This document shows, piece after piece, positions 41,830-63,495 of a stretch of DNA of 64,000 nucleotides. Within the stretch, counting starts at the first letter, position 1; each line of letters starts with the position of its first letter. The stretch spans positions 66,424 through 130,423 of the forward strand of contig QZJO01000011.1 of the NCBI GenBank assembly GCA_003599755.1, in the 5' to 3' direction. The translations under genes and the position numbers were made by a program. The notes beneath the pieces were generated by a model, which was given only the letters and a program-made list of their open reading frames with translations, ran no database searches and was not told the DNA's origin. Origin of the DNA: Candidatus Parcubacteria bacterium. GTDB lineage: Bacteria; Patescibacteriota; Minisyncoccia; Sungbacterales; SURF-37.

Positions 41830-41948
41830 GCCGCGTTTTTTTTGCTTCGGGATTGCGTATGCAGCGTAGCGGTTTTGCGCCGGAAATGAAATGAGTGAGC
41901 CGCCCGGATGGTGTCCGGGCGGCTGGCGGCTTCGACAGGAACGTTCGT

Positions 41949-42302: not shown

Positions 42303-42386
42303 AACTGCCTCCTTGGAAGGTCAATGCCTTCCCGATATATTCAGCATACCCCGAAAAACCGCCGAACGGTAGCCGTGACGCGCCGG

Positions 42387-42608
42387 CTATTCGTTTTCGG
42401 CCCGAGCATCGAACTCGCGCTGCATGCGCGCCATCCATTGCTCTTTATTTTCGCCGGTGCGCTTTTCCATATCCATGATGCTCGCCTTGTGTGCATCGTC
42501 GGCCATCATGTGCCGGGCGCCGTTTTGCATGATCTGGTCAAACGTATTGCCGGAGAATGTTTCGTCGCATACGCCTCCCAATTCGCGGCACGAAAATGTT
42601 TTGCTCAT
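42387..42608 (-). CDS. DUF1059 family small protein
   Basis: MSKTFSCRELGGVCDETFSG... canonical DUF1059 N-terminus. Confidence 0.65.
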   Translation of the reverse strand: MSKTFSCRELGGVCDETFSGNTFDQIMQNGARHMMADDAHKASIMDMEKRTGENKEQWMARMQREFDARAENE

Positions 42609-47777: not shown

Positions 47778-48608
47778 TTAGATACCGAGCAGCTGAACGA
47801 TGACGCTTGGCTTCCAGACCTGCCCTAAATTTGATAGTTCGCTTAACTCCTCATCTTGGACCCGACCAGAGTATATACCCATGAATTTCGTTCGCGGTGG
47901 TACACCAAGCTGGAAACCCTCTGACGAATGAATGAGACCCGATCTATATGCGATCACAGGAGAACCCGACATACCTTTTTTTGTTGACGCGTCAATTAGA
48001 AAGATTGGCCTCTTCGCATAGTCGATATCGATATCCGAGGCGACGTGACCCGTCTTCCAAATTGGAAATTTACCAAAAGCCGATTGATTGTACGGGAATC
48101 CGATTATTGAAACGGGATCCGATGGCAAGATTATAAGATCTGTATTCGCAAGGGTGATATCCAGTGGGTGCACATCGATATCGTTCGTGACCTCGATCGG
48201 TAGAGCGATGACATCTGCTTTTCCATCTGCCGTGTCTATCTCCTTCCACGTGAGTTTGCCATTTCCATCTTGTAGGGAAACATCCTTCGGAATCCATTTA
48301 CCGAGCAAGTCTTTTCGGTGATGCCAGATTCGAATCGTGTTAGGTATTGCAGCTAGCCCCGAAAGTGGATTATCTGTTTTAGGATCTCGTCCAGATACGA
48401 CATGCCAGTTCGTTATCAAGAAATGCTCTCCATCTCTGGCAACAATAAATCCGGTACCGGAGCCCAGTTGTTGGGCATTAAAAAAGATTTCCAGATGGAG
48501 CGAAATTGCCGTAAGGGGATGCACGATTGGCATAGTTGTTTCTCGAAGATATTGCGGCCAGGACATGGCCTGAGTCATCGTTATGTTCGAACCTCTAATT
48601 CTTCGCAT
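47778..48608 (-). CDS. trypsin-like (S1/chymotrypsin-fold) serine peptidase
   Basis: GSGTGFIV...HFLITNWHVV (His), D, and TKKGMSGSPV (Ser) catalytic triad context; about 48% GC vs about 65% flanks; start 48608/48578/48533 uncertain. Confidence 0.7.
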   Translation of the reverse strand: MRRIRGSNITMTQAMSWPQYLRETTMPIVHPLTAISLHLEIFFNAQQLGSGTGFIVARDGEHFLITNWHVVSGRDPKTDNPLSGLAAIPNTIRIWHHRKDLLGKWIPKDVSLQDGNGKLTWKEIDTADGKADVIALPIEVTNDIDVHPLDITLANTDLIILPSDPVSIIGFPYNQSAFGKFPIWKTGHVASDIDIDYAKRPIFLIDASTKKGMSGSPVIAYRSGLIHSSEGFQLGVPPRTKFMGIYSGRVQDEELSELSNLGQVWKPSVIVQLLGI

Positions 48609-48863
48609 CAAACCGATTCAATTTTGAACTTTTGGCCTTCCATTTTTGACAATGCTCGGGCGGCAGGATCCCGGCGCTCTGCGCCTAGAACCGTCGCGGC
48701 ACGCGCACTGCATGCGCTAACGCCGCTCTTTGAAACCTTGCGGTTTCAATACTTCCACCACGGGGAAACTCCCGTTTCCCCGACCTCCCTTCTCTGGTTC
48801 GAATCCTACGCGCCTCGTGCATCAAAATCAAAACCCCTCGCAAGGAGAGGTTTTGATTTCGAA

Positions 48864-49070
48864 CTCCGAAAGCGAGACGACGTTCGAACCTTAACGATCA
48901 AATTAGTCCGCGACGTTTATGAAAGCATACGCGAGTTCGGTCTCGCGCTCAATCTGCCGACGTTCGCTTTTGTTCCGGGTCGCCGTGACGACGCCTCGCG
49001 GTGGCGTCCTTCTCACATTATGAATTCGGAGCAGGCCGCCAAGTGGGAGAAACCGGCCGCATGAGGCCGG
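48864..49070 (+). repeat. 207-bp direct repeat, copy 2
   Basis: See copy 1; the two copies bracket the 1.9-kb protease cassette. Confidence 0.85.
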
Positions 49071-49120
49071 TCCGCGTTCGAGCGTTTCATGGTAGAAGCT
49101 AGATAACGAATCAGCAGTAG

Positions 49121-51004
49121 CTATTCGCCCATCTCTCCGAGGAAGCGGGATCTCTCCTTTCCAACGATCCTTCCACCATGCCGATGCGTTTCTCTGCCTG
49201 TTCGCTGAGAGGCCCATGACATCAGTAACGACTGTTTCGAGCGGGTAACCGAGACGAAGAAAAGGCGCCGGCGCTCCTCGATGTTCGGCATCTCCCCCGG
49301 CATGAGATCGTCCTCCAGCGCGGGAATAAAAACGATTGGCGCCTCGAGGCCTTTGGCGCTGTGCATGGTAAGAATCCGTACCTTATCCGGGAGTTCCGCA
49401 TCCTTTCCCTCGAGCTTGCCAGCTTCTCGCTCCTGCTCGAAATTCTGCAGGAGCTCGCTTAGTTTCATCACATTCTCCTTCCCCGCCTGCCTTGCAAAGT
49501 ATTCCTGTGCGATCCCTATTCCCTTATCATCAGCGCATTGTGGTGCATCTCGGATAATGGTCGGGATGATTGTTTCGAAATTCCTTTCAGCAGCACGTTC
49601 GGACATCTTCCGATGAAATTCTCCTACGAGACGTCGGTGCCGAATATCGGGATAGCGACTGGGGTCCTTTGCGACATTTTGAGTTGCCGCCCAAAGTGAC
49701 TGCCCGTTTGCCTGAGCCAGATCACGAAGATGTTTAATGGTCTCTGCCCCAATGCCATCGTGCGCGCCAAGACATTGGCGTGCAGCCAGATTATCTGACT
49801 GATCAGCCAGGAGTCCGAGTACCGCGAGGAGTTGAGCGAAACATTCAGAGTCGAATGGACCAGCTATTCTCAATTGAACATCGGTCGGAATATTGGCTAC
49901 CCGAAGCGCTGAGATGTAATCATCCGCAACTCCACCATCGCCAAAGAGAATCATCATCTCACGGTACTGAGCGCCACGTTCGTGAAGTTCCTCGACCTTA
50001 GCGACCAGCCATTGGATTTCTGCTTTTTTGCTTCGCAACCAGAAGGTTGCGACTGTGCCCCCATTCTGCGCGGCAACAAGGTTGGCCTTTCCTGGAATTC
50101 TTATCCTGTTGTTGCGAATCAAGGCATTTGCTTTATCGATTATGGCGGACGGGCAGCGATGGCATTTTGTTAGAAGGAGCGTCGTGGTGCCAGCGACGCG
50201 GTCGTGGAAATCAACCAGTCCATTGGGTCGAGCGAAGCGCTGGGTCTCATAGATGCTTTGGTCCTCATCGCCCACTACACAAAGACCACGAGGGTTACCT
50301 ATCAGAAGACGTACCAGCTCTTGATCGCTATGATTCAGGTCCTGGTATTCATCGACGAGTAGATAATGAATCCTCGCCTGCTCTCTTTCGCGAATGTTGG
50401 GATGGGCTTCAAAGATGCGCAACACAGCGTGAACAACTCGAAACCAATCGACACCACCATAGAATCCCTGAATCGCCTCGTACGCTTCGGTGAACCTATG
50501 ATAGGTCTCCGTTGCTTGGGGGCTCCTGCGAATCCAGTTCGGGATACCAGCGCCGCTCAATTCGGCCCTGTACGCGTTTAGATATGTTTTTATATTGCCC
50601 TGTCCTCTGAAAGGCAGTCGTAGACCGATCGCATTTAGATCGACCATCACATCTTGGATAAGGATTCTTGTTTCATGCTCACTTAAGGGTCGAACCGTTT
50701 GTTTCATTCCAACTAGGTCAGCGTGCTGTTTTAGAATCCCCATCGCTTTCGAGTGAAGCGTCCGGACATCAGGCATTCGATCCGGAGCGATGCCCTCGCG
50801 TTCGAGACGCTGCCGCATCTCTTTCGCCGCCGCACGCGTAAACGTCACCGCGAGCATCGTTTTTGGATCAATTTTGTCCTTAGTGAGCAGATCAACTATT
50901 CGAGCGACCAGACACATGGTCTTTCCAGTTCCAGGACCAGCAACAACGCGGAGAGGGCTATCCCTGTGATCCACGACTTGCTGCTGCTCGTCGCTCAGAT
51001 TCAT
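49121..51004 (-). CDS. UvrD/PcrA-like superfamily-1 DNA helicase (627 aa, lower GC)
   Basis: Motif I AGPGTGKT, motif II LLVDEYQD, motif V TMHSAKGLE, motif VI VSVTRSK. Confidence 0.8.
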   Translation of the reverse strand: MNLSDEQQQVVDHRDSPLRVVAGPGTGKTMCLVARIVDLLTKDKIDPKTMLAVTFTRAAAKEMRQRLEREGIAPDRMPDVRTLHSKAMGILKQHADLVGMKQTVRPLSEHETRILIQDVMVDLNAIGLRLPFRGQGNIKTYLNAYRAELSGAGIPNWIRRSPQATETYHRFTEAYEAIQGFYGGVDWFRVVHAVLRIFEAHPNIREREQARIHYLLVDEYQDLNHSDQELVRLLIGNPRGLCVVGDEDQSIYETQRFARPNGLVDFHDRVAGTTTLLLTKCHRCPSAIIDKANALIRNNRIRIPGKANLVAAQNGGTVATFWLRSKKAEIQWLVAKVEELHERGAQYREMMILFGDGGVADDYISALRVANIPTDVQLRIAGPFDSECFAQLLAVLGLLADQSDNLAARQCLGAHDGIGAETIKHLRDLAQANGQSLWAATQNVAKDPSRYPDIRHRRLVGEFHRKMSERAAERNFETIIPTIIRDAPQCADDKGIGIAQEYFARQAGKENVMKLSELLQNFEQEREAGKLEGKDAELPDKVRILTMHSAKGLEAPIVFIPALEDDLMPGEMPNIEERRRLFFVSVTRSKQSLLMSWASQRTGRETHRHGGRIVGKERSRFLGEMGE

Positions 51005-51209
51005 AATCCCGGATATGTTCGAACTTTTCTTTGAGAGGTCATGCGATTACTTTAAAACGTTGTTGTTTCTGGGTGTTTAGGACATAACCTCTCCGGAGTA
51101 TCGCCGCCTCAGAAACCGGCCTACTTCGGCCGGTTTCTCCGTCTAGTCGCCATCCTGCGGGGTCGTAAAGTGAGCACAGGTTCGATCAGAACTGCCGGCT
51201 CCTTGCGAA

Positions 51210-51401
51210 ATGAACATGAACGAAACCGCAGGGTATCGAGCGTTCCAGGCACGCGTCCGTGCCTGGGGCGATCTCTTCGCATCAATGGGTCTCCCCATGA
51301 AGGCGGACGATGTCGAGACTGTCGCGACGTATGCAGCGGCAATCGAAGAAGTGATTCGGAAAAGTCGTCGGAATTCGCGTAAGCGTATTAGTCGAAAGTA
51401 G
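51210..51401 (+). CDS. possible small helical protein (63 aa) next to tRNA
   Basis: ORF only; no RBS; speculative. Confidence 0.15.
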   Translation: MNMNETAGYRAFQARVRAWGDLFASMGLPMKADDVETVATYAAAIEEVIRKSRRNSRKRISRK

Positions 51402-51514
51402 CTAGATAACTGCGGGGACGTCGGCGAGAGGATCGAACCGTGGGGATGAGTCCAGGTTCGAATCCCACGCCTGGGTGAGGTTGAAACGCGCGCATTTATG
51501 CGCAAAATGACCGA

Positions 51515-51586
51515 CTCCGGCGGCAGGATTCGAACCTGCGACCATCTCGTTAACAGCGAGCCGCTCTACCACTGAGCTACGCCGGA
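51515..51586 (-). tRNA. tRNA-Asn (anticodon GUU)
   Basis: Cloverleaf readable on minus strand: acceptor TCCGGCG/CGCCGGA, D-arm GCTC-AGTGGTA-GAGC, anticodon stem-loop GCTCG-CTGTTAA-CGAGA, T-arm GCAGG-TTCGAAT-CCTGC; CCA not encoded. Confidence 0.7.
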
Positions 51587-51589
51587 ATA
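51569..51589. repeat. 21-bp direct repeat ccactgagctacgccggaata (copy A, overlaps tRNA 5-prime end)
   Basis: Identical 21-mer recurs at about 51871..51891, bracketing the GIY-YIG ORF. Confidence 0.6.
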
Positions 51590-51825
51590 AGGTTATGCTT
51601 TCGAATGTACTTTCTGCCTGCTGCACTCTTCAGATATCGCTCACGTTCTCGCGCTTCCTCAATCGTATTGCATTCTTCTGTATATATCACTTTCCACGGA
51701 GCATACCGGCTAGAGAAGGTTCCTTGCCCATTATTATGCTCATGAAGTCTGCGGTCTAGATCCGTAGTGCTGCCGGTATATGTCTTTTTCGCCGTTTTAC
51801 TTTTGAGGATGTACACTATCGCCAT
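51577..51825 (-). CDS. GIY-YIG nuclease family small protein
   Basis: IVYILKSKTAKKTYTGSTTDLDRRLHEHNNG...WKVIYTEECNTIEEARERERYLK; 3-prime end overlaps the tRNA-Asn 5-prime end. Confidence 0.65.
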   Translation of the reverse strand: MAIVYILKSKTAKKTYTGSTTDLDRRLHEHNNGQGTFSSRYAPWKVIYTEECNTIEEARERERYLKSAAGRKYIRKHNLIPA

Positions 51826-51870
51826 ACCGCTCTACCCGCCTCGCGTCGACTCGCCGCGAGTCGAGGCGGG

Positions 51871-51891
51871 CCACTGAGCTACGCCGGAATA
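51871..51891. repeat. 21-bp direct repeat copy B (tRNA-Asn 5-prime fragment) preceded by a GC hairpin
   Basis: ccactgagctacgccggaata preceded by gtcgactcgccgcgagtcgag palindrome; approximate coordinates. Confidence 0.55.
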
Positions 51892-51996
51892 TGTATCCGC
51901 CCCTTTAATAAGAACTTCCATCTGAAATCTCCGCGGGCCGCTGAGCTTCCGATGTGCGACTGAACATCGCAAGGATACGCCAAAATCGATCAGAAA

Positions 51997-52344
51997 TCAA
52001 TACGGATAAAAGATCGAAGCCACCCGCTTGGGTGGCTTCGCATAACGGCGGCACCAGGAAAGAATCCGGTCGGCCGATGGATCGGCGATGCCGGTCGTCC
52101 CCCAGCGGAAGATGCCGTTGCAGAACCGCTGGCCCGCCGGCGTGTTCGGCCGAATGCAGTGCTCGATTGCGTACGGCCGCTCCTCGATCATGAGTCCGTC
52201 CGCGCGCCGGCAAGCATAGGCGAGTAGGACATCGGGCTCGATGAGCAGGGTGCCGAGCAGCATGGCAAGAAACACGGCAACAAAGGTCAGGGCGATCACC
52301 GCCCCGTACAGCATGAAGCGCGTGCGATCGAATGCGCCTCGCAT
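51997..52344 (-). CDS. hypothetical membrane-anchored protein
   Basis: ORF with TM segment LYGAVIALTFVAVFLAMLLGTLLI; no RBS found. Confidence 0.25.
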   Translation of the reverse strand: MRGAFDRTRFMLYGAVIALTFVAVFLAMLLGTLLIEPDVLLAYACRRADGLMIEERPYAIEHCIRPNTPAGQRFCNGIFRWGTTGIADPSADRILSWCRRYAKPPKRVASIFYPY

Positions 52345-52785: not shown

Positions 52786-52892
52786 GGCGCACCTCCTCGA
52801 TGCGGGTATGCTAACAGGAACGGTATTTTTCGCAATGCCGAAAAACACTCCTCCTTTGAAGAGGTTGGGGATATTCGGTTAACAATGATGGC

Positions 52893-54218
52893 CTAGATCT
52901 CGCACGAGACCGATACCTCCTCGTCGATGCAGGTGTCGGTTCCCCCGCCGCCGTGTACGGTATCCGTGCCCGGGCCGCCGTCGAGGAGATCGTCCCCGTT
53001 GCCGCCCTGCAGCTGGTCATTGCCGTCTTCGCCGTAGAGCTCATCGTCGTCATTGCTGCCGGTCGCGTTGTCATTTCCGCCGCCGAGGCGGATGACGTCA
53101 TTCCCGTTTCCGCCGCTGACCGTGTCATTGCCGCTGCCGGTCACGATTTCGTCATTCCCGTTTCCACCGGAAACCGTGTTGTTTCCTTCGCCGCCGAAAA
53201 TATCATCGTCCCCATTACCGCCCGTAATAACGTCATCGCCGTTGCCGCCGTAGATCGTGTCATTCCCCGCGCCGGCATTTACTTCGTCGTTGCCATCGCC
53301 CAAATCAATCCAGTCATCGCCGTCGCCGGTCTGGACTTCGTCGTTGCCGCCGTAGGCATACACGGTCGCGGGGCCATCGGATTGGATGATGAGGTCGCGG
53401 CCGGGCGTTCCGCAGATGATGTCGGTTCCATCCTCGGCTTTGGCCATGTCCGTGCCATTGCCGTCGTACATGACGATCACGTCATCAACGCCGTCGAACG
53501 CGCGCAAGATCCCGTTATAAGAGCTTCCGTCATCGCGGCCGCCGTGGATGATTTCGTTGGCATCCACCCAAATGGTCGCCGGGTGGCCCTCGCAAAACGG
53601 CGCATCGGTCGGGACGCTCTGGACCTCCACTACTAAATCGCAGCCGAACGTTTCGCCGGCAAGCGCGGGATCGAGCTGGTATTCGGACGCGACGCCCGAA
53701 TCCTGGGAGCACTGTCCCATGAAGCAGGGCACATGCAAGTCAATAATCCATTGATCCGCGGTGTCGCTTTCGGATTTCGCGAGCGTTCCGACGGCGATGC
53801 TGGAGGTTGCACTCGGATCATGGAATGCGGGCACGCCGGTGTCGTTGGCCGGCGCGTTGTCCGGGGTTTTGGAAAGATACGGGCAGAGCGACCGATAACA
53901 GCGGGCATAGTCGGTCGGGTTTTCCCGGCAATACGCGCGTTCCTCTTCGCTGTCGGTGCGGGGCTTGGGCCGCTGGACGATGCGATATTCGACTTCATCG
54001 AGGTTCGGGTTGGCGATGAACGCCGATGAAAGGTCGATGTTGATGGGCTCGAGATGCACTTCGCCCGGAAATACGGTCGAGAACGAAATGATATTGGGCG
54101 TGACGGAGAGGTTCGCGTTGATGGTGACGTGGTTTGCGCTGACGCCAAGCGTGCCGAACGCGGCAATTGCCAAAAAGCCGGCCGCAGCTACAAGCAGGCG
54201 CACGACGTATGAATTCAT
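52893..54218 (-). CDS. secreted protein: SipW-cognate-like signal plus conserved ~230-aa N-domain plus C-terminal RTX-type Ca-binding nonapeptide repeats
   Basis: N-domain shares VEYRIVQRPKP...CFMGQCSQD...FGCDLVVEV blocks with the 58526, 60375 and 61756 paralogs; C-terminus GGNGNDxIxGGxGND repeats. Confidence 0.65.
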   Translation of the reverse strand: MNSYVVRLLVAAAGFLAIAAFGTLGVSANHVTINANLSVTPNIISFSTVFPGEVHLEPINIDLSSAFIANPNLDEVEYRIVQRPKPRTDSEEERAYCRENPTDYARCYRSLCPYLSKTPDNAPANDTGVPAFHDPSATSSIAVGTLAKSESDTADQWIIDLHVPCFMGQCSQDSGVASEYQLDPALAGETFGCDLVVEVQSVPTDAPFCEGHPATIWVDANEIIHGGRDDGSSYNGILRAFDGVDDVIVMYDGNGTDMAKAEDGTDIICGTPGRDLIIQSDGPATVYAYGGNDEVQTGDGDDWIDLGDGNDEVNAGAGNDTIYGGNGDDVITGGNGDDDIFGGEGNNTVSGGNGNDEIVTGSGNDTVSGGNGNDVIRLGGGNDNATGSNDDDELYGEDGNDQLQGGNGDDLLDGGPGTDTVHGGGGTDTCIDEEVSVSCEI

Positions 54219-54235
54219 TCCCGGAATATGACTAG

Positions 54236-57025
54236 TCATTCCGTTGCTGGCGCATCAGACGGCGGAGGGGTCGGAACTGGCTCGGGAACAGGTGCTTCGG
54301 GCGAGGGGTCGGCTGGAGCCGGATCCATCGGCGGAGGCGGAGCTTCGGCAGGATCAGGCACCGGCGCTTCGGCCGGCTCTTCGGGCTCAGCCACGGGCGT
54401 CTCCGATGGCGTCTCCGTAGTCGAGGAATCGGGCGTGGCATCAGATTGTTCTTCCGGCGTCGGAGCAGGGGTCTGGGCTGCTGGTTCCGGCTCGCTGCTC
54501 GCCTCCGGTTCATCAGCAACCCCGCCATCTACCGCGGGCTCCTCGGAAGCGTCAGTATTCGTCGCTTGTGAGTCATTTTCGTCTGCCGGCGCGGCCGGAT
54601 CTTCGTCTGCAGGCGCGCTTTCGCTTGCGGGCGCAGGGGTTTCAATGGCTTCCTCTTCGGGTTCCGGCTCCGGCCGGCGGACTTCTAACGGCAGCGGTTC
54701 TTCCACGGGGATATCAACCGCATCCACGAGTACGGGCTGTACGATGGTAGTCAGTTTTTCGCCGCTGGGCTGGAACGGCGTCTGCCACGGCTGCATGACT
54801 TCGAGCGGCCGGTAGAAATAATTGTTGGCAGCGCCCGGCGTCGGGTCGGGGTCCACCCAGTTGGCCGCGCCATCCGGAATGCGCGCGAACGATTTGTTCT
54901 CGGGCGCATCCTGGGTGTAGGCGTGGCTGTCGATCAACAAGCCGCCCGCGCCGATTTCATTCGAGAACAGGCGCACGGTGTCGCCGCCGGTATTTTCCAG
55001 TTCAAAATCGTCGTCCCCGTCGCGGTAGACCACGAGGAATCCGTGCGATGGGATGATCGTGCTGCCGGTATCGGTGATCGCGCCCGAGATCACGAGCTCG
55101 TTGTCGTTCGAGCTGTCGTAGAGCACGTAGCCCGCCACGTCCACGCTGAAGCCCGTGGGATTGAAGAGCTCCACCCATTCGCCGTCGAGCGCCCCGCCGC
55201 CCGTTCCCTGGTCGTCCCCGGTGGGGTTGGGGACGAATTCGTTGATCAATACATGGGTTGTCGAATCATACGGCTGCACTTCGCCGCAAGCGATTTGGTT
55301 GGGCAGGGCGCGGTAGTTGACCGTCACGCCCGAATCGAAGCGGATCGCGGTATTGGCATCCAGATCGTTGCCGGTTCCGGCTTTCGCGAACGCGGCCAAA
55401 AGCGTCCGGCTGCCGTTGATGTGAATGTCGCCTTCGGACGCGAAGAGCACGGCCTCGCCGATATCCGACGCATCGGCCGCGGCCTCGATGGCCGCGTCGT
55501 CGCCGGTAATCGCGCCGCTTGTGGATACGAGCAAGATCGCGCCGACGACGCCCGAGCCCGAAAAGCTTGCGCCCGCGGCGATATCGATCGCGCCGTCCAC
55601 GATGATGGTTACGAAACTGTCGCCGAATGCCGGGTCCTGGGCAATGACGGTGTTGGAACCGATCGCGAGATTGCCGTGGATGTAGAGCGGCCCGTCGATG
55701 ACGGCGCTGTTGTTCGCGCCGAACTCCACGTTGCCCATGATTTCGGCCGGTCCGAGCTCGAGGCCGACGGTATTGTCCGGGAAGATGAGATGGCCGTTGA
55801 TAGTGCCGCCGTCTTGCGCGCGGGCTTTCCAGAAAGGAATAGAAATATTCGGAAGCGTCGTAGCCGGGATATTCGTAAGCGTCGTACCGGACACGGTGAT
55901 GCTCGGATCAATCGTGTTCTTGGCAAACGCGCTGCCGTTGATTTCGCGGCCGGATCCCCCGCCGAACGCTTCGATCTCATCGTTGGAGCGGACGTTGCCG
56001 TTGACTACCACGCTCGGGCCGAACGTTACGTCATCGTTGCCGTTGGTCACGCCGGCCGCCTGCACCGCGAGTTGATCCGGAAACGCGGCGAAATTTGCCG
56101 CGCAGGCAAAGCCGGTGTCGAAGTTCAAAAAGTCCACGACTTCGGTCTCGATGTCGTCGATCGTCACCGCGACGCTTTCGGGCGTGAGGTGCTGCCAGCC
56201 GATGCGCGTTTCCTCTTTGACGATATAACCGGCCGGGTCGAGGCCCGTGAATTGGTAGTAGCCGTTGGCGTCGGTGACCGTAACGGCGATCACGTCGAGT
56301 GTATCGCCATCGAGCAATTGGATCTGCCAGCCCTCGACGCCGAAGTCGCCCGGCGTAAAGGATTCGGACTGGTCGAGGTCATGGTATTTGTAGCCCTGGA
56401 TTTTTCCCTTGGTCTGGGCAAAGTCGTAAATCTCGGTCGTGATCAAACTCTCGTGCGCGCCGGGCAGGCCGGAGTCGCAGGCAATGGCTTTGACCACCGC
56501 GTCGTCCGAAAGCGGAATGGGCCCCACGGGTTTGGGTCCGCCGGCCGAGATGCCGCAGACCGGATCGGGCGCGATGTTCGGGTCCAGCCCCGGGGTGACC
56601 GTATAAAACACATGCGTGGCGTCCGGATCGTCGTCATCAATCGTGAGATTGATCGGGTCGGTGTAATTGCCGCCCGGCGGCGTGATGACCGGCGGCTCGA
56701 TCATGATGATCGTCGCGGTGACGTTGACCACGTGGCCCTCGAACGCCGTGATAAGCGGCAGCGAGGCCACGCTCAGGGCGACCGCGATCGCGGTCAGGCG
56801 CGTGAAGGTCTTGCGGCTCGAGAGCCGCCGCTGCACCCGTTGCAGCATCCGCGCCACCGGAGAGATCCGCCGCGGTATGATCACGGCCGGAGTGCTCGTC
56901 TTCGCAGTGAGGTTGATGACGTAGCGGCTCAACGGCGCAGTCCGCTTGCGCTGGACACGCGTAACACCGCCTTTGGCAAGGCGTTTTATTTCGGAAATTT
57001 GTTTCTTCGAGCGGGATTCGTTCAT
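54236..57025 (-). CDS. large secreted surface protein: SipW-cognate-like signal, Cna-B/SdrD-B-like domain, beta-helix (bactofilin-like) region, lamin-tail domain, acidic Pro/Glu-rich C-terminus
   Basis: LPLITAFEGHVVNVTATI signal-processing region as in paralogs; GYKYHDLD...DANGYYQF Cna-B-like; HVLINEFVPNPTGDD...GEWVELFNPTG LTD; start 57025 vs 56848 uncertain. Confidence 0.65.
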   Translation of the reverse strand: MNESRSKKQISEIKRLAKGGVTRVQRKRTAPLSRYVINLTAKTSTPAVIIPRRISPVARMLQRVQRRLSSRKTFTRLTAIAVALSVASLPLITAFEGHVVNVTATIIMIEPPVITPPGGNYTDPINLTIDDDDPDATHVFYTVTPGLDPNIAPDPVCGISAGGPKPVGPIPLSDDAVVKAIACDSGLPGAHESLITTEIYDFAQTKGKIQGYKYHDLDQSESFTPGDFGVEGWQIQLLDGDTLDVIAVTVTDANGYYQFTGLDPAGYIVKEETRIGWQHLTPESVAVTIDDIETEVVDFLNFDTGFACAANFAAFPDQLAVQAAGVTNGNDDVTFGPSVVVNGNVRSNDEIEAFGGGSGREINGSAFAKNTIDPSITVSGTTLTNIPATTLPNISIPFWKARAQDGGTINGHLIFPDNTVGLELGPAEIMGNVEFGANNSAVIDGPLYIHGNLAIGSNTVIAQDPAFGDSFVTIIVDGAIDIAAGASFSGSGVVGAILLVSTSGAITGDDAAIEAAADASDIGEAVLFASEGDIHINGSRTLLAAFAKAGTGNDLDANTAIRFDSGVTVNYRALPNQIACGEVQPYDSTTHVLINEFVPNPTGDDQGTGGGALDGEWVELFNPTGFSVDVAGYVLYDSSNDNELVISGAITDTGSTIIPSHGFLVVYRDGDDDFELENTGGDTVRLFSNEIGAGGLLIDSHAYTQDAPENKSFARIPDGAANWVDPDPTPGAANNYFYRPLEVMQPWQTPFQPSGEKLTTIVQPVLVDAVDIPVEEPLPLEVRRPEPEPEEEAIETPAPASESAPADEDPAAPADENDSQATNTDASEEPAVDGGVADEPEASSEPEPAAQTPAPTPEEQSDATPDSSTTETPSETPVAEPEEPAEAPVPDPAEAPPPPMDPAPADPSPEAPVPEPVPTPPPSDAPATE

Positions 57026-57057
57026 GTGAGTCGAGTCCCCGGCCCGGTTGTAGAATT

Positions 57058-57318
57058 TCAGCTGGCGCGCCGCTTGAACAAATAGTCCTTCAGCCGACGC
57101 TTCAGCAGTCTGCGACCGTGCGTTGTTTTGAGATGTTTCTCTCTGCGGCGCGCATCGGAGCCTTCGAGCATGGCCTCGTAGTAGATGCAGCGCCACTGGC
57201 TTCTCTTGGTGGAGAAATTCTTCCCGCTGTTGTGTTCGGCGAGTCGCTTTCGGAGATCAACGGTATATCCGATGTAATGCTCTCCGCTTGGGTTCTCGAG
57301 AACGTAGACGTAGAACAC
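57058..57318 (-). CDS. GIY-YIG nuclease family small protein (GTG start proposed)
   Basis: FYVYVLENPSGEHYIGYTVDLRKRLAEHNSG...WRCIYYEA...RRREKHLK; placed 11 nt downstream of the signal-peptidase gene stop. Confidence 0.55.
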   Translation of the reverse strand: MFYVYVLENPSGEHYIGYTVDLRKRLAEHNSGKNFSTKRSQWRCIYYEAMLEGSDARRREKHLKTTHGRRLLKRRLKDYLFKRRAS

Positions 57319-57328
57319 AGCTGAAATT

Positions 57329-57829
57329 TCACAACCGGGAGGCCCAGATCGAGATGTAACCGATGTACGGTATGCGAAACGGTTGTTCGGGGCGGAATTC
57401 CACCGCTTCCCCGACCACGTCTTCATAGGTGACGGGCGGGTCCTCGGAAAAATTCGCGTCCCCTTTCGTGACTAGCGTCGTCGCGTTGGTTCGCACCACC
57501 CGGTGGATGGTGAAGCCCTCGGCGTTCCGCCAGACCACGATGTCGCCCTCGGCGATGTCGGGTTTGGACACCGCGCGAATCAAAATCATGTCCCCGGTTT
57601 TGAGCGCGGGCCACATGGAGCCGGACGTGATCGCGGCAATGGGAACGTCGGTCCCGAATTTCCAGATCAGGAATTTGGGCACGCCCCAGAGAATGCCAAC
57701 GACGATCGCGGCGTAGATCGCCACGTTCAAGACGATTTTGAGAACGGTGCGGGTCACAGCCACAGGCGTGCAGGCATCGCGCTCAGAGCACCGAGCCGTC
57801 GGGAGCGAGGCCGCGCCGATACGTGTCAT
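57329..57829 (-). CDS. signal peptidase I, SipW-type (S26B, archaeal/eukaryal-like)
   Basis: SGSMWP catalytic Ser motif and FTIHRVV His motif; N-terminal TM; start possibly at internal GTG 57757. Confidence 0.7.
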   Translation of the reverse strand: MTRIGAASLPTARCSERDACTPVAVTRTVLKIVLNVAIYAAIVVGILWGVPKFLIWKFGTDVPIAAITSGSMWPALKTGDMILIRAVSKPDIAEGDIVVWRNAEGFTIHRVVRTNATTLVTKGDANFSEDPPVTYEDVVGEAVEFRPEQPFRIPYIGYISIWASRL

Positions 57830-58235
57830 CGCCCTGCCACGGGCCCGGAATCTTGAAGAGGAATACCCGGCCGGTCATGGTCTCGCCGATGCGGGCGGAA
57901 GCCGGCATGTAGACCGAAAACTCGATCTTGGTCTGGGCGTTGGCCGGCAGGATGAAGAAGTTCTTGTCGAGCTTCATGAGCTCGCTGACCGAGCCGAAGC
58001 GCACCACGGCGACATACAGCGGAATCGCGGTGCGATTCTGGATGTCTACCCGGCGCACGGTCTGGGTTCCCGGCGAGAGGTCGCCGAAGTCGAGGCGCTC
58101 GGTCGTGGGATTCACCCCGACCCGGCCCCGGCCTTCGATGACGTGCACCTGTGCGCGATATTTGTTCGCGTCGAGGGTGATGTAAAAGATCGCCAAGAAA
58201 ACGACGGCGAGGATGACAAACAGGATTTTTTCCAT
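57783..58235 (-). CDS. membrane-anchored hypothetical protein upstream of SipW-type peptidase
   Basis: TM MEKILFVILAVVFLAIFYITL then a beta-rich domain; operon position; no family recognised. Confidence 0.45.
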   Translation of the reverse strand: MEKILFVILAVVFLAIFYITLDANKYRAQVHVIEGRGRVGVNPTTERLDFGDLSPGTQTVRRVDIQNRTAIPLYVAVVRFGSVSELMKLDKNFFILPANAQTKIEFSVYMPASARIGETMTGRVFLFKIPGPWQGDDTYRRGLAPDGSVL

Positions 58236-58525
58236 CCGCGACAGCGATGAAAGCCATCGGCGGAAGCTCAGCTTGCCTGATCCGCCTTGGGCGGATCCGA
58301 CTTGTGGGATTTGAGTAGTAGGTTCCATACCACCCACTTGTACCCCATTTTGATCTGTTTGTCAGCCCCACGAGCTGCCCGAGTCGCCGCCTAGATTTCG
58401 CCGAAGCAGAACCTAGGCGGTACACTCGGATTTCCATCTGAATCTCACAAGGACTCAGGCGAAGCTTGCCGCCTAAGTTTCGCAACGCGAAAGTGAGGCG
58501 GGGTTTGGACAGCTAAGCGTGGTGC

Positions 58526-60211
58526 TTAGTTTTCGGGATATGCAGAAGATTCTGCCGGCTCGGTATCAACTTCGGTGATGTCATTCGTGCGAGCCGCCTC
58601 GGCTTCGCCATCCCACCAGTTGTCCTCGGCATTCACGTCTGCGCCGCCGGATACGGACGGACCGTACCAATTGACATTGTTCCCAAGACCTGCGGGAGCA
58701 AAGTTGTTGGTATTTACGGTCAGGACGCCGTTGTTACTCGTCCCATTCGCAGCGGCCGGAGCTACGCCGACGGCCTCAAGAACGTTGCTTTCGAAATCAT
58801 TGTGGTGAATCGAGGAAGCATCCGGGCCGTCGTTCGCCACGCCCACGTCATTGTTCAGGATGTCGTTGAACGCCACTTCATAATTTGAAGCGGTGTTGAA
58901 GAACATGGCCTGGCGCCAACCATCAAAGACATTGTGAAGAATGTCGATGTTGGTCGCGACAGGCGTTGATCCGGAACCGATCTCAGTAATCACAGCCTTT
59001 GCGTCAGCGCCCTTGGCACCCCCCGGAGCCGTGAACAGGTTGTGGCTGATTACGGTGTTATCAAGCGACGAGTTGCTGCCTTGTCCGGTTTCGTTGTGGA
59101 TGTAGATCGCGGCATTCGCGCTTGCTTGGATGAAGCTGTAGTTGGTGAATTCAAGGCCGGTGATAGTCACGTTATCAGCGTCGATGAACATGCCGCCGGG
59201 GATGTTTGCATCACCAGCCGCTCCAAGCCCCGCAATCGTCACGCTCTCATCGACGTTGATGGGGAAGGTATCGGTGCCGTTGTACGTGGAATCAACACAG
59301 ATTGTCGCTCCGGGAGCGGCTGCATCAATGGCGGCCTGTAGAGATTCGCTACCCGATACCGTATCAGTGCAATCAGCCGGATCATCATAGGAAGCGACTG
59401 CAGCCCCTACGAGGGGGCGTACTTCTTCGCTGACATCCGACACTTCGACCCAGAGGTCGCAGCCGAAGATTTTGTGTTCGTTCGCGATCGGCTGGGTGAA
59501 GGCATCGGCATCGATCGTGGAGCTCGCGCTCACACGCTCGACGAATTCCTGCCAGTCCTGGGCGCAATAGTTGCCAAAGCAAGGTACTGCAAGATCGATA
59601 ACCCAGTTGTCGACAGTATCACCGGGGAGCTCATCCTCGGTGTCCACATCCGATTTTGCCAAGCGGCCGAACGTGTCGAGATATTGAACAGTCGAGGTTG
59701 GACCGTTGGTGTCAACCCAGAATGGAATGTGGAACGAATTGGTATTGCCGTCGTTCTCATCCGGTCCGTGTTTCGAGATGTATTCGCAGAGCGACGGAAG
59801 GACGCCCCATGTTTCGCCCGTGGTAAGCTGCCGTGGAGCCTCGCCACAATCAACGCTGTAAGAGCCATCTTGGTTCGCCACGAGATGACCGGTTGTTGCG
59901 AGCGGCTCGTCCATCAGAACGGTGCCATTTTCGGCCGTGATCGCGCATTTTGGCTTCTGGCGGATGAAGTATGCGACGTCATCCACGCGACCCTCTTCCA
60001 AAAACGAGTTGGAAAGTTGAACGGTCAGCGGCTGATCCAGATGCTCCTGCGGAAAGACCGTGCCGAAGTCGATCCACTCGGTACCTACGGAAAGCGCATT
60101 CTCGATTTTTGCCGTCACGTTGACCACGTGCGCCTCGAACGCCGCGAAGAGCGGCAAGAGCGCGACCGCGGTTCCCGCGACAACGATCCCCAATGCTAGT
60201 TTCTTTTTCAT
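58526..60211 (-). CDS. secreted protein: SipW-cognate-like signal plus conserved N-domain plus right-handed beta-helix-like C-terminal region
   Basis: MKKKLALGIVVAGTAVALLPLFAAFEAHVVNVTAKIENAL; C-terminal NxxIxxN parallel beta-helix-type repeats. Confidence 0.65.
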   Translation of the reverse strand: MKKKLALGIVVAGTAVALLPLFAAFEAHVVNVTAKIENALSVGTEWIDFGTVFPQEHLDQPLTVQLSNSFLEEGRVDDVAYFIRQKPKCAITAENGTVLMDEPLATTGHLVANQDGSYSVDCGEAPRQLTTGETWGVLPSLCEYISKHGPDENDGNTNSFHIPFWVDTNGPTSTVQYLDTFGRLAKSDVDTEDELPGDTVDNWVIDLAVPCFGNYCAQDWQEFVERVSASSTIDADAFTQPIANEHKIFGCDLWVEVSDVSEEVRPLVGAAVASYDDPADCTDTVSGSESLQAAIDAAAPGATICVDSTYNGTDTFPINVDESVTIAGLGAAGDANIPGGMFIDADNVTITGLEFTNYSFIQASANAAIYIHNETGQGSNSSLDNTVISHNLFTAPGGAKGADAKAVITEIGSGSTPVATNIDILHNVFDGWRQAMFFNTASNYEVAFNDILNNDVGVANDGPDASSIHHNDFESNVLEAVGVAPAAANGTSNNGVLTVNTNNFAPAGLGNNVNWYGPSVSGGADVNAEDNWWDGEAEAARTNDITEVDTEPAESSAYPEN

Positions 60212-60374
60212 TTGTTTGGTTTGAATTAGTTCTGCTCGACTCGACCTTTTGTACGTTCCCCTTTGCAGCAACCGCTGTATCAGAGCATTTCGGATACAGG
60301 AGTTGCTGCAGGGTTTTTGGCCTTCCGGCCAAAGCATAGTCCCCGCTTCCGCAGGAACTATGTTTGGGCGCAAG

Positions 60375-61655
60375 TTACTCCACCGGCTCCACGCACTCCT
60401 TGCTGTTGTAGCTCAGCTTGTAGAGGAGTCCCGCGGGGTTGGTTTCGGGCGTGCCGCCGGGCATCCCCTCGTTCGTGACCTCAATTTTTAGCGTATTGAG
60501 GCCGGGTGCGAGGTTCGTGACCGCGTACGCATCCTGCGTGGCGGCTTGGAAGTTGTTCGGGTTGACCAATTCTTGGCCGACGAGGATGTCGTTTACGAAC
60601 GCGCGGTACGTATTGTCGGTCGCGATGTTGAGAAACGCGCTCGTCACCGTGCCGCTGACCGTGAACGTCCGCTCGAACGTGAACGTCTCGGTGAGGGTCG
60701 GGTTATCAACCGGGTCGCTTTCCCAGATCCAGGACGCGAACGGAATACTTGCCGTCCATGCCGGATGGATTGAGGTCACGAGCTCGGCCGGCGCGTCGCC
60801 GTTTTCGGCGACCGTGGTATTCGTGTCGCTGCCGATCTGCGTGAGCGTTTCTTCGCCGAGCGCGCAGCTGACTTCGGATACTTCGACCCAAAGATCGCAG
60901 CCGAAGATTTTGTGCTCGTTTTCTTTTGGCTGGGTGTACTCGTCGGCGTTGATCGTCGAGCTGCCGCTGACGGCGGCCACGAAGTCGGCCCAGTCCTGGG
61001 CGCAGAATCCGCCGAAGCACGGCACGGCCAGGTCAATGATCCAGTTGTCTACGGTGTCGCCGTCGATCTCGTCTTCCAGATCAGTGTCGGATTTGGCGAG
61101 GCGGCCGTGCGTGTCGTTCCACGCGATGCCAAACGGCGTCTCGGCGCCGTCACCGACAATCGTCCACGGCTGGTGGAACGACGTGAGGGTCTCGTCGTTT
61201 TCATCCGGCCCTTCTTTGGAGATGTATTCGCATAGCGACGGCAACATGCCCCAGCTTTCGCCCTCAACGAGCGCGCGGGGCGCGGGGCCGCAGTCCACGG
61301 TTACCTCGCCCTCCTGATCGAGCACCAAGTGGCCGGTCGCGGCGAGCGGCTCGTCCACCAGAACGGTGCCGTTCTCGCGCGTGATGGCGCATTTGGGTTT
61401 TTGGCGGAGGAAATATTCAACGTCGTCCACGCGATCTTCGTCGAGGAATGATTGCGACAAGGCAACGCGCAGCGGCTGGTCCAGGTGCTCCTGCGGAAAG
61501 ACCGTGCCGAAGTCGATCCAGTCGGTGCTTACCTGGAGGGCATTTTCGATTTTTGCCGTCACGTTGACCACGTGCGCCTCGAACGCCGCAAACAGCGGCA
61601 AAAGCGCGATGGCGAGACCGACGGCGGCAATTCCGATGCCGATTCGTTTAGTCAT
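60375..61655 (-). CDS. secreted protein: SipW-cognate-like signal plus conserved N-domain plus C-terminal beta-sandwich
   Basis: MTKRIGIGIAAVGLAIALLPLFAAFEAHVVNVTAKIENAL; N-domain about 70% identical to the 58526 paralog. Confidence 0.65.
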   Translation of the reverse strand: MTKRIGIGIAAVGLAIALLPLFAAFEAHVVNVTAKIENALQVSTDWIDFGTVFPQEHLDQPLRVALSQSFLDEDRVDDVEYFLRQKPKCAITRENGTVLVDEPLAATGHLVLDQEGEVTVDCGPAPRALVEGESWGMLPSLCEYISKEGPDENDETLTSFHQPWTIVGDGAETPFGIAWNDTHGRLAKSDTDLEDEIDGDTVDNWIIDLAVPCFGGFCAQDWADFVAAVSGSSTINADEYTQPKENEHKIFGCDLWVEVSEVSCALGEETLTQIGSDTNTTVAENGDAPAELVTSIHPAWTASIPFASWIWESDPVDNPTLTETFTFERTFTVSGTVTSAFLNIATDNTYRAFVNDILVGQELVNPNNFQAATQDAYAVTNLAPGLNTLKIEVTNEGMPGGTPETNPAGLLYKLSYNSKECVEPVE

Positions 61656-61755
61656 GCGTCTGATTGCCGAACCGTTCCCCGAGTCCGGAAAGTCACGCGA
61701 GTGAAGCGATAACCCCAAACCCCGCGGATTGCGGGGTTTGGGGGAGTTTCAGCGA

Positions 61756-63207
61756 TTACTCTTCGCAAACCGTAAGTTCGACCAAGATCGATTCAAGGTC
61801 ATCGAAATCGCTTGCGAGGAAGTATTGGCTCGGAGCATCGGCAATCTCATTCATGAGGAATGCCTCGGTGGTCGATGTGACGCCGATCCCGATGGCGAAT
61901 ACGTCGATACCGGCAGCGCGCGCCGCATCAGCTGCAGCCGCTGCGTCTATCGCGCCTTGCGCTTCGTCCGGCTGATTGGGCGCACCGTCCGAGATAACGA
62001 CCATGACGTCCTGCACCGATGGCCGCTCATGGGCATGCGCGTTATCGAGTTCGGCAATGGCAAGCGTGATGCCGGCTTCCATATCCGTGGTCCCGCCGCT
62101 TACCAAGCCATTGATAGCGGCCTGAATGGTCGCTTTGACGTCCGTGAGGTGCGAATCCAATGTTGCGCCACTGGAGAAACTCGTCTGGCCGATATGGTTC
62201 TCATTACCCGATGCCGAAGGCATGAGCGCATCAACGAACGCGAGCAATCCCGTCTTTACGGTGTTCATGTCCGTCCCGCCGATGCTGCCGGAGCGATCAA
62301 CCACAAGCATGAGGTCGATCTCTTCTTCGCAGCCAAGACCCGGCAAGCTGATGTTGAATACTTCGAACCAAAGATCGCAGCCGAAGATCTTGTGCTGATT
62401 CTCGATCGGCTGGGTCCAGTCGTCGGCATTCTCCTGCTCGTTCGCGTTATGCGTGCCGACGAATGTCGCCCAGTCCTGGGCGCAGAATCCGCCGAAGCAC
62501 GGCACGGCCAAGTCGATCAGCCAGTTATCCTCGAAGTCCTGGACGCTTTTGGCCAGGCGGCCCTGGGCTTCCAGCCAGGAGATGCTTTCACCGTTTACGG
62601 TAAACGGCGCGTGGAATGCGTCTACATCGTCATCGTTCTCCTGCTCGGTGCCGTCTTCCGTGTCTTCGTGCTTCGAAAGATACGGGCAGAGCATGGGCAG
62701 TACGCCCCAGGTCTCTTCCGGAACGGTTTGAAGCTCGCGGGGCGCGGGGCCGCAATCTACGTAGTAGCCGTCGAATTGAGTTACGCCTTCGAATGTATCG
62801 CCGGGATCCAACGGCAGCGGATCAGCTACGTCATTCGGATCATACGCGCCGGGGAATACGTGGCCGGTCCGAGTATACAGATGCGTGCCATCTTCGCCCG
62901 TGGCGGCGTCGAATTCCGTGCCGTCATTCCAGGTGATGGCGCATTTGGGCTTTTGGCGGATTACGTACTCCACGTCGTCCACCCGGTCTTCATCTTGGAA
63001 CGATTGCGACAGGGCGATGGGGATGTTCTTTACGAGATACTCCTGCGGGAAGACGGTGCCGAAGTCCAAGGGATTTACGGGAACCGTCAAAGCGTTTTCG
63101 ATCTTGGCCGTGACGTTGACCACGTGTGCCTCGAACGCCGCGAACAGCGGCAGAAGGGCAACGGTGGCGCCGGCAACGGCAAGACCGAATAGAACCTTTC
63201 TTTTCAT
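61756..63207 (-). CDS. secreted protein: SipW-cognate-like signal plus conserved N-domain plus C-terminal von Willebrand factor A (MIDAS) domain
   Basis: MKRKVLFGLAVAGATVALLPLFAAFEAHVVNVTAKIENAL; LMLVVDRSGSIGG...TDMEAGI...VVISDGAPN VWA motifs. Confidence 0.7.
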   Translation of the reverse strand: MKRKVLFGLAVAGATVALLPLFAAFEAHVVNVTAKIENALTVPVNPLDFGTVFPQEYLVKNIPIALSQSFQDEDRVDDVEYVIRQKPKCAITWNDGTEFDAATGEDGTHLYTRTGHVFPGAYDPNDVADPLPLDPGDTFEGVTQFDGYYVDCGPAPRELQTVPEETWGVLPMLCPYLSKHEDTEDGTEQENDDDVDAFHAPFTVNGESISWLEAQGRLAKSVQDFEDNWLIDLAVPCFGGFCAQDWATFVGTHNANEQENADDWTQPIENQHKIFGCDLWFEVFNISLPGLGCEEEIDLMLVVDRSGSIGGTDMNTVKTGLLAFVDALMPSASGNENHIGQTSFSSGATLDSHLTDVKATIQAAINGLVSGGTTDMEAGITLAIAELDNAHAHERPSVQDVMVVISDGAPNQPDEAQGAIDAAAAADAARAAGIDVFAIGIGVTSTTEAFLMNEIADAPSQYFLASDFDDLESILVELTVCEE

Positions 63208-63495
63208 ATAGTTATGCAGTTAGTCGGTTAATCGGTTGAGCGACCTGCCGATGCCGGCAGGACGGAACAATGGCTCGACCTTGAAGTGCCCCGCACCGCG
63301 CGGGGTGCCGGGGTAAACAAAACAGAGCCGCCGCTTGCGCGGGGCTCTGCTTGAATAACGAAAAATTCCATCTCCCCAAAGGAGAGACAGCCGCGGAGCC
63401 ATGAACCGGAACACAGGGTTTTTATCATTCGGGCTCGACGGTAGTTCGGCGACCAGAGCCATCCGCCTGTTGCGCGTGCAATCGGCGGGACGGTT

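Follow-up and report, generated by a model that had tools for sequence, protein, structure and literature searches.

A conserved Patescibacteria operon that couples a SipW-type signal peptidase to tagged secreted proteins, a candidate TasA-style surface assembly system

Organization of the locus

The 64,000-nucleotide stretch of DNA analysed here (hereafter, the window) belongs to contig QZJO01000011.1 of the Candidatus Parcubacteria bacterium assembly GCA_003599755.1. At approximately 52.8-63.4 kb of the window lies a cluster of minus-strand genes encoding five secreted proteins, a SipW-type signal peptidase, a membrane protein that we call TM184, and a small GIY-YIG nuclease. Several of the secreted proteins share a conserved N-terminal domain (N-domain), a short segment at the signal-peptide junction (the tag), or both. 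The best explanation of the evidence presented below is that the cluster is an operon specific to Patescibacteria (the Candidate Phyla Radiation, CPR), which has its own dedicated signal peptidase and serves cell-surface assembly.

Based on the open reading frame (ORF) listing, the genes are transcribed in the order VWA fusion, beta-sandwich fusion, beta-helix fusion, TM184, peptidase, GIY-YIG, 929-aa protein and RTX protein (Table 1). The coordinates given in a first-pass annotation of the window match this listing overall, with the correction that the beta-sandwich gene starts at 61655 and not at 61652, and the membrane protein and the GIY-YIG gene that it placed at the locus are indeed present. 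The beta-sandwich fusion, protein 2, is identical to hypothetical protein C4552_04145 of a Candidatus Parcubacteria bacterium metagenome-assembled genome (MAG) at NCBI. Terminator-like hairpins flank the cluster, and their positions are to be taken as suggestive, because the scan overall shows no enrichment over shuffled sequences.

Table 1. Features of the cluster, in order of transcription (positions in the window; class I, tag and N-domain; class II, N-domain without tag).
Feature	Position	Strand	Composition	Basis or remark
Terminator-like hairpin 5' of the first gene	63368..63390	-		Pattern scan; probable end of the preceding transcription unit
Protein 1, VWA fusion, tagged (class I, 483 aa)	61756..63207	-	Signal peptide; tag; six-Cys N-domain, aa 24-290 (nt 62338-63138); VWA/MIDAS, aa 298-474 (nt 61786-62316)	ORF, Pfam
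Tag AFEAHVVNVTAKI of protein 1	63100..63138	-		Translation
Protein 2, beta-sandwich fusion, tagged (class I, 426 aa)	60375..61655	-	Signal peptide; tag (nt 61548-61586); N-domain; C-terminal beta-sandwich, aa 265-426	ORF
Protein 3, beta-helix fusion, tagged (class I, 561 aa)	58526..60211	-	Signal peptide; tag (nt 60104-60142); N-domain, aa 24-262; NosD-like right-handed beta-helix	ORF
TM184, 150-184 aa	57783..58235	-	Type II single-pass membrane protein	Start possibly up to 58337
Sec11/SipW-type (S26B) signal peptidase I	57329..57829	-		Real start probably a GTG near 57763
Small GIY-YIG nuclease gene	57058..57318	-		Pfam GIY-YIG, 53.8 bits; GTG start most likely
Tag-only protein, 929 aa, without N-domain	54236..57025	-	Long basic N-region; hydrophobic segment; tag AFEGHVVNVTATI (nt 56708-56746); CHB_HEX_C_1-like Ig region (weak match); SdrD_B/Cna-B; unassigned region; lamin-tail domain; acidic Pro-rich tail	ORF, Pfam
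RTX protein (class II, 448 aa)	52893..54239	-	Ordinary signal peptide (VSA↓N); tag-less N-domain, ~aa 36-215; RTX Ca-binding repeats, ~aa 300-445	ORF, Pfam
Two terminator-like hairpins right after the RTX gene stop	52823..52864	-		Pattern scan; probable operon end

The N-domain and its modules

Four of the window proteins, the VWA, beta-sandwich, beta-helix and RTX fusions, have in common an N-domain of 180-270 aa with six Cys residues at equivalent positions, as the first-pass annotation had described. Its identity between the beta-sandwich and beta-helix proteins is 71% at the amino acid level and 72% at the nucleotide level; the VWA protein is approximately 51% identical to these two, and the RTX protein 31-37% identical to the others. 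The earlier figure of about 70% for the paralogs is thus right for the closest pair and not for the rest, and the "recent" diversification drawn from it is unsupported, because even that pair differs at more than a quarter of its nucleotides and the other N-domains are considerably more distant.

No Pfam or NCBIfam model matched the N-domain. A search of a 5.8-billion-protein collection returned 1174 homologues at E<=1e-3; among the best 120 of these, every one with a named source comes from Patescibacteria, and nearly all of those are annotated as "hypothetical protein". In a library clustered at 50%, the family has 601 representatives. Many members are stand-alone proteins of ~260 aa, and these N-domains without any head are the commonest form; others carry appended or inserted modules. 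The alignment of 56 stand-alone homologues has a mean column identity of 51% overall, and the segment AFEAHV.NV.A.IENAL is invariant in it (invariant positions A24, F25, E26, A27, H28, V29, N31, V32, A34, I36, E37, N38, A39, L40 and V42). These data support the N-domain as a real, conserved and secreted unit whose C-terminal partners can be exchanged. MdbA-like oxidoreductases and VKOR are enriched in CPR genomes (PMC6744442), which would support the formation of extracellular disulfides.

The AlphaFold model of the N-domain (protein 2, aa 1-264, built on the 56-sequence alignment) has a mean predicted local distance difference test score (pLDDT) of 90.4 and a predicted template modelling score (pTM) of 0.80. 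It comprises a signal helix (residues 5-23) and, beyond the tag, a beta-sandwich with insertions and two short helices. In this monomer the tag (residues 24-39) is unpacked and without secondary structure, with a pLDDT of 59-74 versus more than 90 for the sandwich. A Foldseek search with the model gave no significant match. The top two hits were CanA (cannula, E 0.02) and TLP-1a (TasA-like), and the TasA fibre was matched with an E value of 0.71 and a TM score of 0.25; the weak structural matches below threshold include the donor-strand fibre subunits CanA, TLP-1a, the DUF1102 tube, AbpA and CanX. When the PDB was searched with an N-domain sequence profile, only a chance match was obtained (E 2.4).

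The modules joined to the N-domain in the window are diverse. The VWA domain of protein 1 matches PF00092 in Pfam with 91.1 bits and has its metal ion-dependent adhesion site (MIDAS) motif, DRSGS, at aa 304. The C-terminus of protein 2 is weakly matched in NCBIfam by the N-terminal sandwich of an alpha-L-rhamnosidase (E 5.8e-6), and protein 3 matches TIGR04247 (NosD family) across aa 345-447 (E 6.4e-9). The RTX protein matches PF00353 (HemolysinCabind) in 6 stretches with 102.5 bits, which places it among the RTX proteins. In the 929-aa protein, Pfam identified LTD (47 bits) and SdrD_B (34 bits). The modules proposed in the first-pass annotation were in this way recovered (VWA/MIDAS, RTX, NosD-like beta-helix, SdrD_B/Cna-B and LTD), apart from a beta-helix inside the giant 929-aa protein, which no Pfam or NCBIfam model detected.

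Among 101 representatives of the N-domain family, the modules found were SpaA_2 (19), VWA (12), MopE (7), LTD (6) and DUF642 (5), together with beta-helix/NosD, PA14, LamG, ice-binding-like and other modules; such C-terminal modules are typical of adhesins and pili. Four members (P0289, P0304, P0338 and P0350) have an insertion of ~170 aa within the N-domain itself, with the tag at ~aa 25 and the FGCDLW motif at ~aa 400, which means that variable modules can sit inside the domain as well as behind it.

The tag and the three protein classes

A common signal-processing region had been attributed to four of the secreted proteins, but it is present in three: LLPLFAAFEAHVVNVTAKIENAL is carried only by the VWA, beta-sandwich and beta-helix fusions, in which the tag AFEAHVVNVTAKI is identical. 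The RTX protein, a tag-less paralogue that the first-pass annotation overlooked, has an ordinary signal peptide (...GTLGVSA↓NHVTINANLSV) and lacks AFEAHVVNVTA. In the 929-aa protein, AFEGHVVNVTATI follows the hydrophobic segment; the hidden Markov model (HMM) of the core N-domain did not match this protein, which, as had been annotated, shares the tag only and has other domains downstream. Class I and tag-only proteins resemble each other from the invariant Ala that precedes F to the end of NVTAxI, which makes the tag 13 residues long. Since the three window copies differ at synonymous sites, the tag is conserved at the protein level, and an RNA-level cause of its conservation was ruled out on the same grounds. 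The N-V-T of the tag (e.g., window 63100-63138) is an N-x-T glycosylation sequon, which is probably not essential because a minority of homologues break it (NVK, NVE or NVI).

HMMs built for the N-domain core, TM184, the peptidase and TasA were searched against 3981 ORFs from the window and from 75 loci obtained in a scan of one genome per species. The N-domain core was found in 181 of the 3981 ORFs, most of which bear the tag. Tag-only ORFs, without the N-domain core, occur in 40 loci and in the window, each just 3' of the peptidase gene; in the 40 related loci, the tag-only gene starts within a few hundred bases of the peptidase gene end. A slightly wider motif identified 48 such ORFs, which are of two kinds. 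Proteins of the first kind, including that of the window, have 800-950 aa and continue with ...IDPPVITPPGG. Those of the second kind have 350-400 aa, continue with ...NVTATIERRPxQCDALSxGYWRNH, replace the giant protein right after the peptidase, and have no Pfam or NCBIfam match (e.g., L001 9500-10696, L008 2812-4014 and L076 12569-13774, as well as ~25 other loci). The tag-less N-domain class, with a canonical VSA↓ signal peptide, occupies the distal end of the cluster both in the window and in ~19 other loci.

From these three sets of ORFs it follows that the cluster encodes proteins with tag and domain, with the tag only, and with the domain only. This is the set of components that a donor-strand polymer with defined ends would need.

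Tag-only proteins and TM184 also have long, variable and very basic cytoplasmic extensions, of up to ~70 aa, before the hydrophobic segment (window 56800-57025 in the giant protein). Such extensions are unusual for cleaved signal peptides.

The signal peptidase and TM184

TIGR02228 is the model of the archaeal/ER-type signal peptidase I (MEROPS S26B), the subfamily that contains SipW. The window peptidase scored 76.3 bits with this model over aa 29-162, against a cutoff of 51.85, which makes it SipW/Sec11-type and upholds the SipW-type assignment that the first-pass annotation had made with reference to the SGSMWP box. Its catalytic boxes (TSGSMWP, TIHRVV and KGDANFSEDP) contain the elements expected of S26B enzymes, namely the Ser of the SxSMxP box, a His rather than a Lys as the general base, and the GDxN...D box. 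TS.SMWP, IHR and GDAN...D.P are conserved at a level of at least 90% in 54 peptidase orthologues. The score with NF046067, the Bacillus SipW equivalog, was 47.6 bits versus a cutoff of 190. On these sequence scores, the window peptidase is placed in the same subfamily as SipW, with no ortholog-level match.

TM184 consists of an N-terminal transmembrane (TM) helix, an invariant LDANKY motif and an Ig-like ectodomain of ~110 aa of the PapD/ASH/MSP type. In a confident AlphaFold model, the ectodomain is a seven- to eight-strand sandwich superposable on MSP/PapD domain 1, as in other members of this Ig-fold superfamily. Pilus chaperones use the PapD/ASH/MSP Ig fold for strand complementation. When TM184 was compared with the N-domain family by HHalign, only the N-termini were aligned, with 39% probability: the TM segment, then LDANKYRAQVHVIEG with FAA--FEAHVVNVTAKIEN, and then xLDFGDL with xIDFGTV. 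The post-TM strand of TM184 thus aligns weakly with the tag.

The candidate start of the peptidase gene lies -10 to +15 nt from the TM184 stop in ~26 of 39 loci, a proportion that is biased upward because the in-frame start nearest to the TM184 stop was chosen each time. TM184 is a universal partner of the peptidase, and the two genes are tightly linked; this role of the membrane protein had been overlooked in the first-pass annotation.

Conservation of the cluster across CPR genomes

The 75 loci all come from CPR MAGs or unclassified bins, except for three bins labelled Gammaproteobacteria. They cover Vogel-, Ryan-, Doudna-, Uhr-, Wildermuth-, Giovannoni-, Azam- and Harrisonbacteria, Paceibacterota and other lineages. 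Sixty-one loci had enough flanking DNA to be informative, and in 58 of them one to five N-domain genes are followed by TM184 and then by the peptidase. TM184 is present in 60 of the 61, and the remaining locus has neither TM184 nor the peptidase. The check suggested in the first-pass annotation, i.e., whether other genomes pair the N-domain with SipW, was thus strongly positive. The pattern is far beyond chance, given that the tag is invariant in 56 homologues and the gene order is kept in 58 of the 61 loci.

A typical gene-called locus encodes a VWA-fused N-domain, two stand-alone N-domains, a shorter diverged N-domain, TM184, the peptidase and a 401-aa protein. The shorter copy is a tagged paralogue of ~215-225 aa after the tag, with the sequence ...IENAL(F/Y)VHP(E/Q)S, and in most loci it lies directly 5' of TM184 (e.g., L001 7355-8065, L017 10866-11582 and L076 10848-11588); such loci also hold a stand-alone major copy. 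Both the stand-alone N-domain and this short ...ENAL(F/Y)VHP paralogue, which precedes TM184 in most loci, are absent from the window.

The GIY-YIG gene of the window is an insertion between the peptidase and tag-only genes and lies outside the system, because these two genes directly abut in other loci (L007, L013 and L076). It looks like a mobile or selfish insertion.

The three bins labelled "uncultured Gammaproteobacteria bacterium" (L044, L050 and L073) hold a full CPR-type cluster, and their labels are likely the result of mis-binning or mislabelling. At L023 (1699-4002), the only informative locus without a downstream TM184 and peptidase, a tag-less class II gene precedes a class I gene near the contig end; this cluster may be permuted or split.

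Comparison with TasA and other known systems

The first-pass annotation had suggested that the N-domain might be TasA- or camelysin-like, a likeness that could not be demonstrated. Neither PF12389 nor NF046066 matched any of the five secreted proteins, an HMM built from a 111-sequence TasA-family alignment matched none of the 3981 ORFs, and Foldseek, as described above, returned nothing significant. An HHalign comparison of TasA with the N-domain family gave a probability of 47%, confined to the signal-peptide junction (pmFAAFEAHV vs GGGTWAAFND). TIGR04088, the model of the SipW-cognate signal proposed as a check, requires at least 19 bits; it did not match the N-termini of the VWA, beta-helix, RTX and giant proteins even at E<=10, whereas the TasA positive control scored 38-42 bits. 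No other NCBIfam model matched the isolated N-termini.

Mature TasA begins at A28, with residues 28-38 serving as the donor strand by which the next subunit is completed; TapA has the same N-terminal sequence as TasA and has been proposed as the supplier of the first strand (PMC9674648). The presence of the tag on a protein without an N-domain parallels, by analogy, this relationship between TapA and TasA. The locus resembles tapA-sipW-tasA of B. subtilis in its logic, yet it fails the sequence tests for the TasA family and has no significant fold match to it. In both systems, a dedicated ER/archaeal-type peptidase is encoded in an operon with its substrates, the conserved segment of the substrates straddles the cleavage site (WA↓AFND in TasA and, putatively, FA?AFEAHV here), an accessory protein has the strand without the subunit fold (TapA and the tag-only protein), and there is neither a sortase nor an usher. 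In contrast to tapA-sipW-tasA, the subunit belongs to another sequence family (no PF12389, TIGR04088 or significant fold match), has six Cys residues and usually carries appended or inserted adhesin modules. The cluster additionally encodes a universal membrane-anchored Ig protein and a tag-less subunit class, its named members are all from Patescibacteria, and its fibre is a proposal based on genes and models. What is new, then, are the substrate families, the universal membrane partner and the three-class architecture, which are not described for TasA systems; SipW-type peptidases with cognate substrates are known.

The archaeal donor-strand fibres (AbpA, CanA/CanX, TLPs and DUF1102 tubes) matched the N-domain below any confident threshold, and their subunits, unlike the N-domain proteins, have no modular adhesin fusions. 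The operon of the archaeal bundling pilus (ABP) has no dedicated peptidase (PMC9245690), and the ABP paper reports PF12389 members in Patescibacteria. A Gram-negative envelope is reportedly absent from CPR cells (PMC6744442). Unlike the chaperone-usher pili (Pap/Fim), the cluster has no usher gene and no sequence relationship to them; their chaperones have two soluble Ig domains, whereas TM184 has one and is membrane anchored, and it does not qualify as a chaperone of that type.

Similarities to sortase pili and to MSCRAMMs (microbial surface components recognizing adhesive matrix molecules) are the VWA tip domain with MIDAS, the SpaA-like prealbumin folds and Cna-B/SdrD_B. The cluster differs from them in having no LPXTG, sortase or pilin motif and in N-terminal processing by a signal peptidase. 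No LPxTG-like motif or C-terminal hydrophobic anchor was found in any of seven operon proteins, and the TLxTC matches in the window are antisense artefacts only. A sortase pilus was ruled out by the absence of LPXTG and sortase. A type IV pilin was ruled out as well, since the hydrophobic segment precedes the conserved motif and the operon peptidase belongs to S26 and not to A24. The WxL clusters of Enterococcus and Listeria offer a likeness at the fold level only: their WxL-interacting protein WxLIP (DUF916/DUF3324) is 16% identical, it differs in topology and domain count, and WxL domains are absent here. No description of the cluster or the motif was found in the literature searched, and a survey of CPR protein families discusses type IV pili alone.

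Flanking features

A second stand-alone GIY-YIG gene is located at 51577-51825 on the minus strand; both it and the copy inside the cluster (57058-57318, minus) encode 82-86 aa. The 3' end of its ORF is overlapped by ~10 nt by a tRNA-Asn (GTT) gene (51513-51587, minus), the sole RNA gene identified in the window by ARAGORN and Rfam. The GC content of positions 48000-52000 is 0.52, compared with ~0.60 elsewhere. This low-GC stretch encodes a UvrD-type helicase (49121-51004) and a trypsin-like peptidase (47778-48611), adjoins the tRNA and the GIY-YIG gene, and may be a foreign insert. Upstream of the locus are genes for a BNR/sortilin-repeat protein (44942-45841, minus) and an ABC exporter with fused transmembrane and nucleotide-binding domains (40060-42438, minus).

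Proposed assembly and alternative explanations

In the most likely interpretation, the operon proteins belong to a TasA-style surface fibre or adhesin complex. Within this frame we favour, with a probability of roughly 0.45, a donor-strand polymer. According to this model, every substrate would be exported by Sec, and the Sec11/SipW-type peptidase of the operon would cut the ...(F/L)(A/S)-AFEAHVxNVTAxI precursors at or next to AFEA; by analogy with TasA (TWA↓AFND), the cut may fall just before it. This would free HVxNVTAxI(ENAL), with its alternating hydrophobic residues, as an N-terminal beta-strand able to complete the N-domain beta-sandwich of another subunit (donor-strand complementation). 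Subunits joined head to tail would then build a short fibre or complex displaying VWA, beta-helix, lectin-like sandwich, SpaA-like, LTD and other modules.

The three protein classes would have distinct places in such a polymer. Class I proteins would be the chain subunits; the tag-only protein would cap the last open acceptor site or nucleate one end, as proposed for TapA; and the tag-less N-domain-RTX protein would be an acceptor-only opposite end, like FimH/PapG of chaperone-usher pili. TM184 may bind the tag by beta-augmentation and act as a specificity partner of the peptidase, a holding chaperone or a membrane anchor. The adhesive heads would be formed by the VWA, beta-helix, sandwich and RTX modules. 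Taken as a whole, that is, as a new CPR surface fibre that combines dependence on Sec and a Sec11-like peptidase, donor-strand polymerisation, a new subunit fold, tag-only and tag-less ends, a PapD-like chaperone-anchor and adhesin heads that grip a host, the picture is rather doubtful. Gene content, conservation, synteny, peptidase class, folds and tag distribution are observations, whereas the cleavage position, strand insertion, polarity, TM184 role and adhesion are inferences.

Several observations weigh against the donor-strand polymer. Among known fibre subunits, no significant relative of the N-domain was found by structure or sequence, and for a pilin the domain is unusually conserved, with 50-65% identity across deep CPR lineages. 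Its many invariant polar residues (H, D, E, K, Q and W) and six Cys residues hint at binding or catalysis rather than at a purely structural role. All class I proteins of the window bear a bulky C-terminal module, and unlike most loci it has no stand-alone subunit that could form a shaft. The cleavage site is ambiguous, in that none of three candidate sites, judged by eye, fits the -3/-1 rule cleanly in both protein classes. Finally, the first strand of TM184 belongs to its own sandwich in the TM184 model.

The conservation of the N-domain speaks for a different explanation, in which the proteins are ordinary secreted monomers served by a private peptidase. The tag would then be a recognition or quality-control element, TM184 might be Spc3-like, and the N-domain would bind a ligand, metal or glycan or be catalytic, e.g., on the host envelope. 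In addition to the many invariant polar and aromatic residues and the six Cys residues, this explanation is favoured by the lack of significant similarity to fibre subunits, by the tight spacing of the TM184 and peptidase genes in most loci, which suggests a complex of their products, and by an invariant His close to the possible cleavage site. Proteins with an N-terminal His are often metal binders (PMC12537917). A histidine-brace or N-terminal-His metalloprotein is only a minor possibility here, since cleavage would precede AFEA according to the TasA-like alignment, and Asn-His is found in the RTX paralogue. We regard secreted monomers as unlikely overall. Equally improbable, in our estimate, is a non-polymeric display in which the cut tag docks as a beta-strand on TM184, so that each protein is tethered singly and the adhesin heads are anchored without a sortase. 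Such tethering leaves unexplained why a conserved N-domain is needed, why headless stand-alone N-domains are so common, and why the cluster retains a tag-less N-domain class; moreover, a single TM184 gene would have to serve up to five or more substrates, and the TM184 sandwich is already complete in the model. The least probable explanation is that the N-domain is a very diverged true homologue of TasA/camelysin (PF12389) or of the AbpA jelly-roll, and the locus a CPR ortholog of tapA-sipW-tasA; against it stand the failed TasA-family sequence tests and the lack of a significant fold match.

Implications for CPR biology

CPR bacteria (Patescibacteria) account for a large part of bacterial diversity, and those in cultivation live attached to other microbes. 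The locus defines three uncharacterised protein families, namely the N-domain, TM184 and the tag-only proteins. Together with the peptidase, these constitute a surface-protein operon that is among the more conserved ones of such reduced genomes. Type IV pili are so far the sole structure tied to CPR attachment (PMC6744442, PMC12206443); if the full picture of a host-gripping fibre is true, the CPR fibre would be a second attachment organelle beside them. If the tag is a donor strand, TasA-like assembly would extend to a new fold and a new phylum-level group, and the cluster would supply concrete candidates for host-binding adhesins. Should there be no fibre, the 13-residue tag still offers a simple marker by which substrates of a specialised signal peptidase can be searched for, and it makes the surface-protein content of CPR bacteria testable by proteomics and heterologous expression.

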